A stretch of 64,000 nucleotides of DNA from the sequence record MT884006.2; one strand, given 5' to 3'. This document shows, in pieces, positions 34,444 to 42,455 of the stretch. The translations under genes and the position numbers were made by a program. This stretch comes from Escherichia phage vb_EcoM_bov9_1. Below the pieces are notes generated by a model. It was not told where the DNA came from. It worked only from the letters and a program-made list of their open reading frames with translations, and ran no database searches. Numbering within the stretch: the stretch's first letter is position 1; the number at the start of each line of letters is the position of its first letter.

Positions 34444-35174
34444 TAATTTTTCCTCTTTAAAATTCTGCCGTGTTTCCAACCTGGCGGTATAATATCATCT
34501 TTACCTATAAGCGTGCATTCACTTCCATTATTAATCCATTTCTTACCACGAATTCCTTTATAATCTCTTGGTTTTATTTTGTCAAACTTTGCATCAAGTT
34601 GATATGCCCATCTAAATCCATAGGCATATTGAAATTTACCCTCAGCACAATATTTGATATTTGACCCGTTTCCATTAACTGACCGGGACGCTTCCGCGAT
34701 AGAGTGAAATGTTTCTATAAAATCCCCATCTAATGAGAATTTATGTATTTCGATAGATGGACATGCATACCTATTCACGTTTGATACATGTTGTTTAGTT
34801 TCGTTTTTATGATGCTTGCCTAACATTCCTCTAGGATGAGGATTATTTTTCCAATATTTCTTAAAGAAATCAGAATTAGCTTTAGCAAATAATTTTCTGT
34901 GCAAGCTATACAATCTGTTATTAATTCTATTACCAGCTTTATCTGTTGCCATTAACGTTAACGCAGAGGCAAGCCCAAAATGGCCTTCATTTATCTTACA
35001 TAGTAATAGATGCGCTATAAAATGTTCTCTAGCTGTTAATTCAACTAAATTTTCTTTATCATCAGAACCTCCCATGCATTTAGGGACTATATGATGTGTC
35101 TCTTTATATTCGGATAAAGGTTCCCGAGCCTGAGCTCGGGAAATTAGGTCATTATAGATTTTTTGATAATTCAT
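34443..35174 (-). CDS. Free-standing HNH endonuclease (MobE-like position between nrdA and nrdB)
   Basis: 243 aa; HNH motif HHIVPKCMGGSDDKENLVELTAREH; start overlaps nrdA stop. Confidence 0.8.
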   Translation of the reverse strand: MNYQKIYNDLISRAQAREPLSEYKETHHIVPKCMGGSDDKENLVELTAREHFIAHLLLCKINEGHFGLASALTLMATDKAGNRINNRLYSLHRKLFAKANSDFFKKYWKNNPHPRGMLGKHHKNETKQHVSNVNRYACPSIEIHKFSLDGDFIETFHSIAEASRSVNGNGSNIKYCAEGKFQYAYGFRWAYQLDAKFDKIKPRDYKGIRGKKWINNGSECTLIGKDDIIPPGWKHGRILKRKN

Positions 35175-37438
35175 TACAATTTACACGCTGCACAATCGTC
35201 GGCTTTAGGAGTTTCTATTTCATAATCATCAGTACCAGAACCATCACGGGTATTATGATAATAGAAATTTTTAATGCCATAATACCATCCGTATAGCATG
35301 TCATCAATCATTATTGACATTGGAACCTTTCCTTTTGGAAAAATCTGCGGGTCATAGTATGTATTAGCTGAAGCTGATTGACATACCCATTTCAGCATAA
35401 TAGCTACTTGCGTAAGATAAGGTTTATTACCTTTCTTAGCTAATTTCCATGTATAATCATAGAGGTCTATGTTATGCTCAATATTGGGCACGACTTGATT
35501 AAAGGAGCCCTCTTTTGATTCTTTAACAGAGACTGGTCCACGTGGAGGCTCGATACCGTTTGTACTGTTAGAAACTTGGGAAGATGACTCACATGGCATA
35601 AGTGCTGATAATGTGCTATTACGGATGCCAAAGAGCTTAAGGTCTTCCCGCAGCGACGACCAGTCACAAACGTATTTTGGAGCTGCGATTTGGTCAATCT
35701 TTTTATTGTACCAGTCGATAGGTAATTCGCCTCGAGACCAACGAGTGTCTGAATAATATTCGCAAGGTCCTTTTTCTTTGGCGAGCTTAATGGATGCTTT
35801 AATGAGTCCATACTGCAATCTCTCAAATAGTTCATGTGTTAAATCGTTAGCATCTTCATAAGAAGCAAAATTACTTGCCAGCCAAGCTGCATAGTTAGTA
35901 ACACCTACGCCAAGGTTTCGACGCTTTTTAGCTTTTTCTGCTTCAGGAACTGGATATCCTTGGTAGTCCAAAAGATTATCAAGAGCACGAACTTGGACTT
36001 CTGCCAATTCATTAATTTTATCTTGGTCTTGCCAATCGAAGTTATCTAACACAAATGCAGATAATGTACACAATCCAATTTCAGCATCAGGACTATTCAC
36101 ATCATTTGTTGGAATAGCAATTTCACAACACAAGTTACTCTGACGAATAGGTGCCTTTTCACGAATAAATGGAGTATAGTTATTCGTATTATCAATGAAC
36201 TGTACATAAATCCTTGCTGTTCCTGATCGTTCAGTCATGAGCAATTCAAACAGTTCACGGGCTTTAATACGCTTTTTGCGAATATTAGGGTCTTTTTCTG
36301 CGGCTTCGTATAATTCACGGAAACGGTCTTGGTCTTTAAAATAAGAATAATAAAGCTCGCCACCCATTTCGTGTGGACTGAACAAAGTAATGTAGTCGTT
36401 CTTTCCAAAACGTTCCATCATTAGGTCATTCAGTTGAACGCCATAATCCATATGACGGATACGGTTTTCTTCTACGCCTTTGTTATTTTTCAAAACGAGA
36501 AGATTTTCAACTTCCAAATGCCAAATAGGATAATAAGCAGTAGCAGCGCCGCCACGAATTCCACCCTGTGAGCATGATTTAACTGCAGTCTGAAAATGTT
36601 TCCAAAAAGGAATAACACCAGTATGGCGTACTTCACCTGTGCCAATCTTAGAACCTTCGGCACGAATCATACCAACGTTAATACCAATTCCAGCGCGTTT
36701 GGAGATATATTCAACAATTGAAGCAGAAGCCTTATTGATAGACTTTAATGAATCACCTGCCTCAATAACAACGCATGAACTAAACTGCCGAGTTGGAGTA
36801 CGGCAACCAGCCATAATAGGAGTTGGCAGTGAAATCTGTCGAGTAGATACTGCTTCATAAAAACGGATAACGTGTTTTAATCTATCAACAGGTTCATCTT
36901 GATGCAATGCCATTCCAATAGTCATAAATGCAAACTGTGGAGTTTCATAAATTTGACCAGTGGTTTTATCTTTAACTAGATATTTTTCTTTTAATTGCAT
37001 CGCCCCGGAATAAGTAAATTCCATATCCCGCTCATGCTTAATTTTTGATTCTAAAAATGTAATTTCTTCGGCAGAATATTTTAACAACAATTCAGGGTCG
37101 TATTTACCTTCATTTACACAGTAAGAAATATGATCAATAAATGAACGTGGTTCATACTGCCCATAAACATGCTTACGAAGAGCGAACATTAAACAGCGTG
37201 CAGCTACATATTGATAATCAGGCTCTTCAACTGAAATAGAATTCGCAGCAGCCTTAATTACAATAGTTTGAATGTCATCAGTTGTCATTCCATCACGGAG
37301 ATATGATTTAATATTTTCATATAATTCATAAGGATCTACAGATGTTCCTTCAGCTGCCCAAGATAAAACTTTAATAATTTTTTGCGGGTCAAAGCTCTGA
37401 GAAACACCACTACTTTTGATAACATTAATTAATTGCAT
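35174..37438 (-). CDS. nrdA: Ribonucleotide reductase large subunit NrdA
   Basis: 754 aa; ATP-cone N-terminus and class I catalytic core. Confidence 0.95.
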   Translation of the reverse strand: MQLINVIKSSGVSQSFDPQKIIKVLSWAAEGTSVDPYELYENIKSYLRDGMTTDDIQTIVIKAAANSISVEEPDYQYVAARCLMFALRKHVYGQYEPRSFIDHISYCVNEGKYDPELLLKYSAEEITFLESKIKHERDMEFTYSGAMQLKEKYLVKDKTTGQIYETPQFAFMTIGMALHQDEPVDRLKHVIRFYEAVSTRQISLPTPIMAGCRTPTRQFSSCVVIEAGDSLKSINKASASIVEYISKRAGIGINVGMIRAEGSKIGTGEVRHTGVIPFWKHFQTAVKSCSQGGIRGGAATAYYPIWHLEVENLLVLKNNKGVEENRIRHMDYGVQLNDLMMERFGKNDYITLFSPHEMGGELYYSYFKDQDRFRELYEAAEKDPNIRKKRIKARELFELLMTERSGTARIYVQFIDNTNNYTPFIREKAPIRQSNLCCEIAIPTNDVNSPDAEIGLCTLSAFVLDNFDWQDQDKINELAEVQVRALDNLLDYQGYPVPEAEKAKKRRNLGVGVTNYAAWLASNFASYEDANDLTHELFERLQYGLIKASIKLAKEKGPCEYYSDTRWSRGELPIDWYNKKIDQIAAPKYVCDWSSLREDLKLFGIRNSTLSALMPCESSSQVSNSTNGIEPPRGPVSVKESKEGSFNQVVPNIEHNIDLYDYTWKLAKKGNKPYLTQVAIMLKWVCQSASANTYYDPQIFPKGKVPMSIMIDDMLYGWYYGIKNFYYHNTRDGSGTDDYEIETPKADDCAACKL

Positions 37439-37755: not shown

Positions 37756-37972
37756 ATTGTTTTTCCGTTAAAACAGTAATATCATAATAACAATCTGAAG
37801 AAGTTTTAACTGTAGAAATTTTATTGTCAAAATACTCACGAGTCATTTTATGAGTATAATATTTTTTGCCATAAATGATAATAGGCTGTTCTGGCCCTGG
37901 AACTTCTAACTCGCTTGGATTAGGAAGTGTAAAAAGAACAACACCAGAAGTATCCTTAAATCGTAAAATCAT
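37709..37972 (-). CDS. Hypothetical protein (nrdA.2-like position)
   Basis: 87 aa from ATG 37972 with GAGAGGATAT site (track used TTG 37984). Confidence 0.5.
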
Positions 37973-37995
37973 ATATCCTCTCAATTAAATTAAAA

Positions 37996-38856
37996 TTACA
38001 CCGCCATCTTTCCTTTCAAGACACCATGGGACTGATAATCTTTGAGAACGAAATCTCGTGCTGTCATATATTCAGTTAACCAATACATTTGAGTTTCAGT
38101 ATCGCATTGACTGAATCCATTAGGCCAATTAATACTAAGTTTGCATAGATCCATAGGAGTTCTATTTAATATCTCTTTGCATTGCTCAATATGGTTAGAA
38201 TAAATGTGTGTATTACCACCCGAGAATACCAAATCGCCCGGAACTAGTTCACACATATCAGCAACAATATGCAAAAGAGCAGCATAACTCGCGATGTTAA
38301 ATGGAAGACCGAGGAAAACATCTACCGAACGTTGATACCATTGGAGGTCAAGGTATCCGTTACGCACATTAAACTGATAGAACATATGACAAGGAGGTAA
38401 TGCCATCTGCTTGAGTTCAGCTGGATTCCATGCCGACACAATTTGACGCCTATCGTTGGGAAATGTTTTAATACGATTAACAACTTCTACAATTTGATCT
38501 ACACCACCAAAATCACGCCACTGTTTTCCGTAAATTGGACCAAGTTCACCGCTATGATAACCTAAGTCTTTGGCCTGGTTTTCGTAGTTTTCATCCCAAA
38601 TTGTTTTTCCTGCAATTAAAGATCCATGAGTACGTTGACGTAAATCATTTACGTTAGTACTTCCTGATAAGAACCACAATAACTCAGAAATACATGCATT
38701 CCAGGCGAGCTTCTTAGTCGTTACTGCAGGAAAACCTTTAGTTAAATCCCAGCGTAATTTAGTACCGAACAAAGCAATTGTTCCTGTGCCTGTTCGGTCA
38801 TCAGTTTCATAGCCATTTTCAAAAATGTCTTTAATTAAATCTTGGTATTGTTTCAT
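37996..38856 (-). CDS. td: Thymidylate synthase, uninterrupted
   Basis: 286 aa continuous; MKQYQDLIKDIFENGYETDDRTGTGT; active-site PPCH; no intron. Confidence 0.95.
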   Translation of the reverse strand: MKQYQDLIKDIFENGYETDDRTGTGTIALFGTKLRWDLTKGFPAVTTKKLAWNACISELLWFLSGSTNVNDLRQRTHGSLIAGKTIWDENYENQAKDLGYHSGELGPIYGKQWRDFGGVDQIVEVVNRIKTFPNDRRQIVSAWNPAELKQMALPPCHMFYQFNVRNGYLDLQWYQRSVDVFLGLPFNIASYAALLHIVADMCELVPGDLVFSGGNTHIYSNHIEQCKEILNRTPMDLCKLSINWPNGFSQCDTETQMYWLTEYMTARDFVLKDYQSHGVLKGKMAV

Positions 38857-38900
38857 TTAGTACCTTATATAAATTATAATACATTTTATGAAGCTAATAA

Positions 38901-39248
38901 TCAATACGGTTTAGCATCAAATTTTCTTTCAATTTCAGGCGTAAAATACAATTCTTTACCACGCTTGGAAAAGCGACCAATAATATGATAATTATTCTCA
39001 TCAAACGTGATATTGCCGATATCCATAGCTTTCAACCAAATATCGATATTTCTGTCAAGCTTTATATCAAAATTCCAATACGGAGAACTATTACCGAAAA
39101 TACTACAAGCGGATTCAGTGAAACAACTGCTATAAATCTTGTCTTTAGGAACTACTAATTGATAGACGCCTTTAATAAACTGAGGACCCTGCCAATTTGG
39201 TTGTTTCGCGTCTTTTTCTAATAGAATAGGGTAATAATTAAAATTCAT
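38901..39248 (-). CDS. Hypothetical protein inserted between frd and td
   Basis: 115 aa; ATG verified; no motif recognised. Confidence 0.55.
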   Translation of the reverse strand: MNFNYYPILLEKDAKQPNWQGPQFIKGVYQLVVPKDKIYSSCFTESACSIFGNSSPYWNFDIKLDRNIDIWLKAMDIGNITFDENNYHIIGRFSKRGKELYFTPEIERKFDAKPY

Positions 39249-39267
39249 ATTTTCCGTCAGTGTTATT

Positions 39268-40094
<827 letters not shown>

Positions 40095-40102
40095 ATTATC
40101 TC

Positions 40103-40438
40103 CTAATATAAAGGATCGGGAACATATCCACTGGCTTTAATCATTTTGATTAACGTTAGCAGTCCTTTATTAACTGCTTGTGAGATTTCATTAAAAACTT
40201 CATCACTAAAAAGTTCTAGCACACCCTTCTGAACTTTTAATTTACAGCCAACAATTTCGTCATCGCCTATAGTAAATTCGTTTCCGCCAATTCCACCGAA
40301 AAACTTAATTACGCCAGTTAACTGTGTTCCACGAGAATATGGGTCGTGTGATAAAGTAATATGAGTCACCCCAGGTACAGTTTTAAATTGACAGCGGATG
40401 TTTACTTGAGCAATTCCAGTTACATGAATGTCAGACAT
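40103..40438 (-). CDS. Hypothetical protein (frd.2-like position)
   Basis: 111 aa; ATG verified. Confidence 0.55.
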   Translation of the reverse strand: MSDIHVTGIAQVNIRCQFKTVPGVTHITLSHDPYSRGTQLTGVIKFFGGIGGNEFTIGDDEIVGCKLKVQKGVLELFSDEVFNEISQAVNKGLLTLIKMIKASGYVPDPLY

Positions 40439-40448
40439 AATATTTTCC

Positions 40449-40691
40449 TCAAACAGACTTTTTCACAATTTTCCAATCAGCTTTAAACTGATCAACGTCA
40501 GAATGGTAAATCCAGAATCCTGCGCTTTCTCCATCCTCATAAAGAGGGCATCCATCGCATTCATCTTCCCATCCCATATCACGCAAAAGACGTTCAGCTT
40601 TTTCAACAAGTTCAGAATCTTTACCGATGATATTAAAATACCATTTACCTCTAACTTCTGAATCTTTAATGCTCTGACGTTGTAATCTCAT
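40449..40691 (-). CDS. Hypothetical protein (frd.3-like position)
   Basis: 80 aa; AGGAGAAT site; early promoter upstream. Confidence 0.55.
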   Translation of the reverse strand: MRLQRQSIKDSEVRGKWYFNIIGKDSELVEKAERLLRDMGWEDECDGCPLYEDGESAGFWIYHSDVDQFKADWKIVKKSV

Positions 40692-40716
40692 TTTATTCTC
40701 CTTAGTTGATAGGGTA

Positions 40717-40746
40717 ATAGTATCACACTACTACCCTTCTGTAAAC
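40717..40746 (-). promoter_or_regulatory. Early promoter
   Basis: Minus strand GTTTACA - 17 nt - TACTAT, TGA extended -10. Confidence 0.55.
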
Positions 40747-41126
40747 TACTTTTTGAAAGTTTTTCGCAAAAGTTCAATGATTTCGTCTACATTATTTTCG
40801 TCAACAATGCAGTGAATTTTTGTTACGCCAGAAACCTTGTCTTTGACTTCATCTTCTTCAGAAGTCGGTTCTTTATACTCACGAAAACAATGAAATTCAT
40901 CTTCGCAAATTTCTAAAAGTCTATCTTTGAGGTAAAAATGCTTTCCATTAGCACATTCAATATGTTTTACCGCTTTAAATCCATTAGTAAAGAAAACTTC
41001 TTTAACTTCAAACCACCCGCCATTTTCTCGAATAATTTTAACTATTGACGCGTTGGATCGTGGGCTATAATTAATAAATGTATCAATAAGTCTTGGAACA
41101 AGTTCATACTTTTTGCCAATATACAT
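40746..41126 (-). CDS. Hypothetical protein, 126 aa, possible accessory insert
   Basis: ATG verified; GAGGAAAACG site; hairpin upstream. Confidence 0.55.
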   Translation of the reverse strand: MYIGKKYELVPRLIDTFINYSPRSNASIVKIIRENGGWFEVKEVFFTNGFKAVKHIECANGKHFYLKDRLLEICEDEFHCFREYKEPTSEEDEVKDKVSGVTKIHCIVDENNVDEIIELLRKTFKK

Positions 41127-41170
41127 TACGTTTTCCTCATTTTAACGGGGCTGTAATAGCCCCTTGATAA

Positions 41171-41401
41171 TTATTGTTCAATCAGTCCCATGTAAAATTC
41201 TGCATCTTCAGAATCCATGCCGTCACAATACTCATTAGCCATAAAGCGGGTGAGGTCTTCAAGAGGACCTTCAATGACAATAGAAAAATTGCAATAATTG
41301 GGATCATCGTGAATACTTGTGATACTAAGTTCAGGATAACGATTACGAATAATTTCTTCAATATATTCAAAATCAACGATGTCAATATCAACTTTAGCCA
41401 T
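41171..41401 (-). CDS. Hypothetical acidic protein, 76 aa, possible accessory insert
   Basis: Start moved to ATG 41401 ([11 protein letters not shown]) with AGAGGAAAA site; early promoter upstream. Confidence 0.5.
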
Positions 41402-41435
41402 ATTATTTTCCTCTTTAATCATCAGCAGTATTGCC

Positions 41436-41505
41436 GATAGTTGTATAGTACCACAGTATGCTTTGGTTGTAAACCGTTTTGTGAAAAAATTTTTGAAATA
41501 AAAAA
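41436..41505. repeat. 70-bp exact repeat, copy 1 (contains an early promoter)
   Basis: Identical to 58059-58128; both followed by different GC hairpins. Confidence 0.8.
41445..41474 (-). promoter_or_regulatory. Early promoter inside repeat copy 1
   Basis: Minus strand GTTTACA - 17 nt - TACTAT, TGG extended -10, A/T-rich upstream element. Confidence 0.55.
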
Positions 41506-41524
41506 GGGGACCTCTAGGGTCCCC
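41480..41524 (-). terminator. Terminator after gene 32
   Basis: ggggacccUAGAggucccc then UUUUUUAUUUCAAAAAUUUUUU on minus strand. Confidence 0.65.
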
Positions 41525-41546
41525 AATTAATTAGTAATATAATCTA

Positions 41547-42455
41547 TTAAAGGTCATTCAAAAGGTCATCCAGGTCCGTGTCATCAGCACTAGATGAACT
41601 GCCAGAGCTTGAGCTCATAAAATCATCTTCAGTTTTTGTTTTGAAGTCATCAACATTGAATGCATCCAAATCATCAGCAACTTTATCAGCTTTCTTAGCG
41701 GCAGTTGCTGCGGCACCGCCCATAGCAGCAGTTCCCATAACTTGACTGAACTTAGTGTTCAGTTCTTCAAACGATTTGAATTTATCTTTAGAAGTCATTT
41801 CAGAAAGATCAACCATTTGTTCGAACAGTTCTTTCTGGAAAGATTCATCATCAATGTTTGGAATCGCAGATTGATTCAGGAATTTAGATTCGTCGTAGTT
41901 ACTAAAACCAGAAACTTGTTTAACTTTCAGTACAAAGTTAGCACCTTCCCACGGACAAGTTACATCAACCGGAGTTTCACCCATTTCAACATCAACTGCA
42001 ATCATTGCATTGATTTTATCCCAGATTTTCTTACCGAAGCGGTATTTAAATACTTTACCTTCATTTTCTGGAGCAGCTGGGTCTTTTACTACAAGAATGT
42101 TAGCCCAGTAAGAAGTTTTACGTTTAACAAGACCGTACTCTTTATTGTCAGTGTTATACAAATCATTTTTACTGATGTACTGACATACTGGACAAGAATC
42201 GTAATCACCGTGAGTAGATGAACAGTTTTCGATATACCATTTACCATTTTTCTTGAAACCGTGATTTACAAGAATTGCGAATGGTGCTTGTTCATCATTT
42301 TTAGACGGAAGAAAACGAATTACTGCTTGACCGTTACCCGCATTGTCGAGTTTCAGTTTCCACTCGCCTTTATCTTCAGAAGAAAAACCACCTTTATTTC
42401 CAGCCAGTTTAGCCATTTGTGCAGCGAGTTCAGCAGTAGATTTACGTTTAAACAT
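41547..42455 (-). CDS. 32: gp32 single-stranded DNA-binding protein
   Basis: 302 aa; [50 protein letters not shown]; zinc ligands and acidic Ser/Asp tail. Confidence 0.95.

Follow-up and report, generated by a model that had tools for sequence, protein, structure and literature searches.

A small gene conserved between frd and td in T4-like phages and apparently deleted from phage T4

In phage T4 (NC_000866) the dihydrofolate reductase gene frd (145109-145690) and the thymidylate synthase gene td (start at 145112) share a 4-nt ATGA overlap; that the two genes overlap in T4 was correctly stated in an earlier note on the DNA studied here. T4 also has several small reading frames in this part of its genome: frd.1 (DUF5417), frd.2, frd.3, nrdA.1 and nrdA.2 are frames of about 75-130 aa, on the same strand as their neighbours and packed among frd, td and nrdA. 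We analysed a stretch of 64,000 nt from Escherichia phage vb_EcoM_bov9_1 (record MT884006.2), hereafter the window, in which a small frame of the same kind, ORF115 (X), lies between frd and td. Unlike X, the five T4 frames are present in T4, and we found no sequence similarity between them and X. Hundreds of T4-like genome annotations in fact already include X, as a hypothetical protein grouped in PHROG 1928; in RB51 it is named RB32ORF229c. PHROG 1928/RB32ORF229c and X are the same protein, with 97-100% amino acid identity and the same position between frd and td, and nothing differs between them.

The features of the region are listed below in gene order, with their positions in the window.

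41547-42455, minus strand: gene 32, first in the gene order of the region
Between gene 32 and frd, minus strand: five small ORFs
39268..39849, minus strand: frd, dihydrofolate reductase, 193 aa, upstream neighbour of X, 92% identical to T4 Frd
39266..39274, minus strand: direct repeat copy 1, TAAATGAAA, spanning the frd stop codon
39249..39267, minus strand: frd-X spacer, 19 nt, with a GGA(A) Shine-Dalgarno-like element 5-7 nt upstream of the ATG
38901..39248, minus strand: ORF115 (X), 348 nt, ATG start, 115 aa plus stop; PHROG 1928 match, the counterpart of RB32ORF229c and homologous proteins; the predicted fold is alpha/beta, with a long beta-hairpin at the C-terminus
38857..38900, minus strand: X-td spacer, 44 nt, with GCTTCA (MotA-box-like), TATAAT (-10-like) and AAGG (td ribosome-binding site)
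38851..38859, minus strand: direct repeat copy 2, TAAATGAAA, spanning the td start codon
37996..38856, minus strand: td, thymidylate synthase, 286 aa, no intron, downstream neighbour of X
Between td and nrdA, minus strand: nrdA.2-like and nrdA.1-like ORFs
35174-37438, minus strand: nrdA, last in the gene order of the region

The earlier note had described a 348-nt ORF with an ATG start between frd and td, flanking gaps of 19 nt and 44 nt, and a td gene devoid of intron. This description holds in every respect: the translation equals the protein quoted there, the gaps are found at 39249-39267 and 38857-38900, and td is an uninterrupted frame of 286 aa.

We then considered how widely X is distributed. 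The 751-bp stretch that comprises X and both gene ends is 100% identical to that of Escherichia phage vB_EcoM_G50, a Tequatrovirus, and the window itself belongs to this genus. By megablast, the 751-bp X region is present at full length in 355 of the 536 phage records with any match, including those of T2, RB32, RB14, RB51, RB9, RB27, RB33 and RB3. When the X protein was used in a tblastn search, matches were obtained in 579 records, with an identity of at least 90% in 362 of them and below 60% in the other 217. The latter belong to other genera, the hosts being Klebsiella, Enterobacter, Citrobacter, Serratia, Edwardsiella, Salmonella and Erwinia. As denominator we took the 1067 records that encode a T4-type Frd, of which 515 have a Frd at least 80% identical to that of the window; X is thus carried by about 70% of the genomes at Tequatrovirus level; among all those that have a T4-type frd, the proportion is at least 54%.

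At least six other named Tevenvirinae genera have, in the frd-td interval, diverged homologues of X (25-45% identity), which retain an alignable length and the invariant residues. An exhaustive HMM search of 1.84 billion representative proteins gave only about 20 X clusters (at 50% identity), all of 95-116 aa, and the family is therefore confined to T4-like phages. A word-indexed protein search with X returned close relatives only. Two longer HMM matches, P0021 and P0023, were rejected as homologues, being repetitive false positives.

In 25 contexts out of 26 we found the X homologue flanked by frd and td; the 26 comprise 19 family-bearing loci, the Marfavirus Kpn BM7, five metagenome loci and the one exception. 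The loci sampled, either annotated or raw, include those of Kanagawavirus (Q7622, PEi20), Moonvirus (Moon), Klebsiella phage Hyena_ER38, Marfavirus (Kpn BM7), CHI14 and EcS1, together with 15 IMG/VR contigs and four metagenomic homologues. The exception is a distant homologue, P0024, encoded away from frd and td on a 13-kb ENA metagenome contig (k141_230232; L027 1248-1577). It immediately precedes an RlaP-type (PF10127) nucleotidyltransferase gene, and a RegB_T4 homologue is encoded about 3 kb downstream; no other member of the family was found away from the frd-td interval.

Two tandem copies, X1 and X2, are usually present in the interval, except in Tequatrovirus and the Hyena-type Klebsiella phages. 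X2 (for example Q76222_00263, CPT_Moon253 and BM7_CDS0257) belongs to the same PHROG as X and is detected by the X-family profile with E values from 1e-9 to 1e-18, the match being weaker (about 1e-6) in one locus, L016. It resembles X by its place in the same interval and by its Q-x-x-W, H-G-x-Y and G-R-F-x-K-x-G motifs, keeping Q16, W19, G27, Y29, G91, R92, F93, K95 and G97, but differs from X by some 20 extra residues inserted behind the conserved Trp, by the lack of conservation of N79 and by its absence from Tequatrovirus. No paralogue of X was found elsewhere in the window or in the T4 region. Consecutive genes of the series frd, X1, X2 and td have overlapping start and stop codons in the other genera, as annotated in Kanagawavirus, Moonvirus and Klebsiella phages. 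A further small gene, ORF68 (68 aa, PHROG 9550), which is unrelated to X, is located directly before td in Kpn BM7 and in three other loci (L012, L013 and L015), where the gene order is frd, X1, X2, ORF68, td. In Yersinia phage fPS-65, ORF68 (L002 1657-1863) occupies the slot that corresponds to 38857-39267 in the window, and its start and stop codons overlap frd and td.

Within Tequatrovirus, megablast revealed three spacings between the end of frd and the start of td: 751 bp when X is present, 542 bp with ORF68 and 336 bp in the T4 type. The 542-bp allele is found in 147 phage records, such as those of fPS-65, pSs-1 and Nami, and the 336-bp allele in T4 re-sequencings, RB55 and FL12; RB59 and vB_EcoM_112 also give an unbroken match to a 50-bp junction probe. 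The number of T4-type records is an estimate obtained by subtraction, namely a few dozen, mostly T4 re-sequencings plus RB55, RB59, vB_EcoM_112 and FL12; junction probes of 80 bp or 50 bp are unusable for counting, since their halves match X-bearing genomes through a shared 9-bp repeat.

The breakpoints of the alleles coincide exactly with gene boundaries. When the 415 bp between the two copies of TAAATGAAA were removed in silico, we obtained the T4 frd/td junction, base for base, and the size difference between the 751-bp and 336-bp alleles is also 415 bp. Because this deletion reproduces the T4 junction and because X is found at the same site in outgroup genera, the T4 state is very probably the derived one, the T4 junction being a deletion and X an ancestral resident, a polarity opposite to that of an insertion. 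RB69 (Mosigvirus; L024 6384-6971 and 5527-6387) also has a direct 4-nt frd/td overlap as in T4, and no X, suggesting that X was probably lost more than once. The RB69 junction implies either a second independent loss or an exchange of the junction between lineages.

In the earlier note X was taken for an inserted ORF, at a classic place for a mobile or accessory gene in an operon that lacks the td intron. One part of this proposal stands, since X is a real ORF that is absent from T4 and is accessory, in the sense that it is dispensable: T4, RB69 and the ORF68-only class do without it. The other part does not, since a homologous ORF is conserved at the junction in most relatives, including about 70% of the Tequatrovirus-level records, and the insertion is thereby refuted. 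A link between X and the absence of the td intron was also rejected. Indeed, a Tequatrovirus genome of 169,650 bp (IMG/VR UViG 2974742932; L008 3394-5267) has X together with a split td, whose intervening sequence of about 1 kb is at the position of the T4 intron, and fPS-65 has the td intron together with ORF68; X is therefore independent of the intron.

Two other features of the region were observed. The td allele of the window is a mosaic, residues 1-183 being 91% identical to T4 Td and residues 184-286 about 60%, with a switch close to the insertion site of the T4 td intron; in the last 170 nt or so, nucleotide identity goes down to 30-60% in an ungapped comparison. Compared with other X-bearing phages, td shows a dS of about 0.9-1.1, as opposed to about 0.2 in frd and 0.24-0.36 in X. 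On the other side, immediately upstream of frd, two ORFs on the minus strand (39849-40094 and 40103-40438) encode proteins of 81 aa (PHROG 3183) and 111 aa (PHROG 3566) and have no counterpart in the frd regions of T4 and RB69; in the metagenome loci the counterpart of the 111-aa ORF is 107-110 aa long (Pfam DUF7247). Since these ORFs are also missing from T4, T4 is reduced on both sides of frd in comparison with this phage.

We propose that the ancestral interval held up to three small genes, in the order frd, X1, X2, ORF68, td. Of these, X1 would be the only one retained in some Tequatrovirus lineages (the window, T2, RB32 and about 70% of the genus) and ORF68 the only one in others (about a quarter), while T4 and a few close relatives would have kept none. 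The T4 type would be the product of a 415-bp deletion between two 9-bp repeats, one containing the frd stop and the other the td start. We consider it very likely that X is, as this account supposes, a vertically inherited gene of the Tevenvirinae frd-td operon.

The pattern of substitutions was analysed against four other Tequatrovirus alleles. The dN/dS ratio of X is about 0.03, with 13-18 synonymous and 2-3 non-synonymous differences; in the same comparisons it is 0.10-0.19 for frd and 0.11-0.15 for td, X being tighter than both. By this measure X behaves as a genuine gene under strong purifying selection. The idea that X is untranslated and merely an open spacer could appeal to its GC content (33%), slightly lower than that of its neighbours, but it has to face, besides this dN/dS ratio, protein homologues that keep the conserved motifs down to 25% identity, a confidently predicted fold, a conserved Shine-Dalgarno-like element and the rarity of such a frame, 115 sense codons remaining open by chance with p ~2e-4 at the composition of the window (36% GC). 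We regard its probability as negligible. Pairwise X distances track Frd distances (r = 0.89), as would be expected if the two were inherited vertically together. From genus to genus, X is the fastest to diverge, with mean distances of 0.67 for X, 0.51 for Frd and 0.25 for Td, and among distant pairs X distances correlate weakly with those of Frd and Td (r = 0.34-0.39).

X is on the same strand as frd and td, and no terminator-like site was observed between the three genes. The only such site in 37900-41600 is located just after gene 32, so X is most simply read as part of one transcription unit with frd and td. The 19-nt frd-X spacer is conserved, 1-nt indels aside, in five other Tequatrovirus loci, and the 44-nt X-td spacer is nearly invariant in six loci. 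A sigma-70 scan of the latter gave a score of 9/12 (TTGATT-17-TATTAT), and we consider this spacer as a candidate promoter and ribosome-binding site for td. Inside frd, about 220 nt upstream of X, another sigma-70-like site (39470-39497, minus strand; TTGACC, 16-nt spacer, TATAAT) scores 11/12. It was rejected as a dedicated X promoter, both hexamers being weaker in T4, fPS-65 and Bas41 (e.g. TTGATC ... TGTAAT), and is probably a lineage-specific site or a chance match.

At the protein level, X matches the PHROG 1928 profile with E = 9.3e-36, residues 4-111 being aligned with profile positions 2-125 of 126. No credible match was obtained in Pfam, NCBIfam, PADLOC or PDB sequences, either with the single sequence or with a 23-member profile; the Pfam matches among the 23 family members concern single members only, at E 0.011 or weaker. 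The earlier note had recognised no motif in X, and this was confirmed, PHROG 1928, which has no assigned function, being the only match; the protein and HMM searches that it suggested led to no functional family. In the literature we found no relevant study on the X ORF or the frd-td junction.

In an alignment of 23 family sequences, Q16, W19, G27, G91, K95 and G97 are invariant, and L9, Y29, N79, F93 and F102 nearly so. X has all the motifs of PHROG 1928, namely Q16-x-x-W19, (K/H)G(I/V)Y and G91-R-F-x-K95-x-G97. The invariant positions of the 23 sequences include no His, Asp, Glu, Cys or Ser, which argues against X being a conventional enzyme. The members are rich in aromatic residues and have a pI of 6.8-9.4. 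AlphaFold2, run with an 18-sequence alignment, gave a confident model of X (pLDDT 85.7, pTM 0.79), in which several short strands are accompanied by a single helix (68-76), and a long hairpin at the C-terminus (86-104) displays the GRFxKxG motif at its tip. The structure prediction and fold search that had been suggested thus provided a confident model, and its comparison with solved structures revealed no structural analogue (orphan fold).

What kind of protein X may be was weighed against several alternatives. T4 does not have X, its neighbourhood contains I-TevI in td with MobE and SegG nearby, and a 9-bp direct repeat flanks the X cassette, all of which would suit a mobile insertion, X being a free-standing homing endonuclease or a remnant of one. 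Public annotation points the same way: the X homologue bas41_0068 of phage FriedrichZschokke (L003 1501-1848) is labelled 'putative homing endonuclease', and so is a feature beside frd in Klebsiella phage ValerieMcCarty04. Other records label X 'dihydrofolate reductase' or 'glucose-1-phosphate adenylyltransferase', and none of our searches backs any of the three labels. No family member matches GIY-YIG, HNH, LAGLIDADG, PD-(D/E)xK or NUMOD, a search of X for an endonuclease, transposase or integrase signature was negative, and no His, Asp, Glu or Cys is invariant in the family. With 115 aa, X is below the size of known free-standing phage homing endonucleases. It is strongly purified by selection and is found at the same locus in at least seven genera, with distances that track Frd, and not with the sporadic distribution and the phylogeny decoupled from the flanks that are expected of a homing endonuclease. 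As for the 9-bp repeat, it is made of the frd stop and td start contexts and fits a microhomology deletion. I-TevI, SegG and MobE are, like X, variably present between conserved genes of the region; unlike them, X has no nuclease or DNA-binding domain, is much smaller, occupies one fixed locus and is conserved in sequence. The homing-endonuclease reading fails every feature that can be tested on the sequence and is largely refuted; what probability we leave to it is very small.

Taken as a whole, the explanation towards which we lean is that of an ancestral operon gene encoding a non-enzymatic binding or adaptor protein. That the partner of this small protein would most likely be Frd/Td or the dNTP complex is a tentative proposal, which we make with low confidence. 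A partner-binding protein is favoured because selection on X is tight, because its position is fixed with overlapping codons and because it has no conserved residues of catalytic type. X would be made at the same time and in similar amounts as Frd and Td, as suggested by the uninterrupted path between the genes and, in other genera, by the start and stop codons that overlap those of its neighbours. Its conserved surface would be formed by the Q-x-x-W loop and the basic tip of the beta-hairpin, G-R-F-x-K-x-G, kept in both paralogue groups. Through this surface X, small and mildly basic, might engage a conserved partner, Frd/Td or the phage deoxynucleotide-synthesis complex, and tune thymidylate and folate cycling; as such a role would not be essential, X could be lost. 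Several observations speak against an adaptor: T4, RB69 and the ORF68-only phages do without X, the P0024 homologue is outside the operon and X diverges quickly between genera. Moreover, since T4-like genomes broadly share their gene order, the position next to frd and td is weak evidence of a shared function. Many small early ORFs of T4 turn out to encode host-takeover or counter-defence proteins, and X might be one of these, resident in the frd-td interval and unrelated to nucleotide metabolism. X is a small protein that phages can do without, the slot being filled by X, by ORF68 or by nothing. It belongs to a single phage subfamily, the 1.84 billion representative proteins containing no more than about 20 clusters of it at 50% identity; it also has an orphan fold, diverges quickly from genus to genus and has one homologue outside the operon. 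However, a dN/dS of 0.03 within Tequatrovirus, below the values of frd and td, is atypical of arms-race genes, and the position of X is stable, with start/stop overlaps with frd and td across genera. PADLOC gave no match either, this library being one of defence and not of anti-defence proteins. An arms-race effector is less likely than a partner-binding protein, and we judge it rather doubtful. X could also be a single-stranded DNA- or RNA-binding protein, perhaps a regulator of translation or mRNA stability for td/nrd, acting via an exposed Trp and the basic beta-hairpin. The conserved residues W19, Y29, F93, R92 and K95 are on beta elements, the family is mildly basic and aromatic-rich, and the weak, noise-level structural matches of X are enriched for OB, S1, CSD and PC4-type ssDNA/RNA binders. 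Yet the model of X gave no significant superposition on OB-fold, cold-shock or PC4-like binders, and we consider this role unlikely.

The direct significance of X is small, as it is an ordinary conserved hypothetical gene that was already annotated. What the locus does indicate is that T4 is an atypical reference at frd-td, and that absence from T4 is not to be equated with insertion in its relatives. A modest interest remains in a strongly constrained family with an orphan fold, located between two central enzymes of nucleotide metabolism in most Tevenvirinae. It is because of its absence from T4 that the family was never studied; the function of X could conveniently be investigated in T2 or RB32.

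A more specific form of the adaptor reading can be drawn by analogy with bifunctional DHFR-TS, although we hold it to be improbable: X, or the X1-X2 pair elsewhere, would be a non-covalent adaptor of novel fold bridging dihydrofolate reductase and thymidylate synthase. If this is true, X would be a functional analogue of the protozoan DHFR-TS junction, promoting the channelling of dihydrofolate and methylene-tetrahydrofolate in the phage dNTP factory, and would have been overlooked for decades because the model phage T4 deleted it. X differs from that junction in being a separate polypeptide without sequence or structural similarity to it, and T4 works without X. The likeness is in the arrangement: the domains of the protozoan enzyme follow the order DHFR, junction, TS, which is mirrored by the gene order DHFR, X, TS, and X is predicted to be co-expressed with both enzymes.
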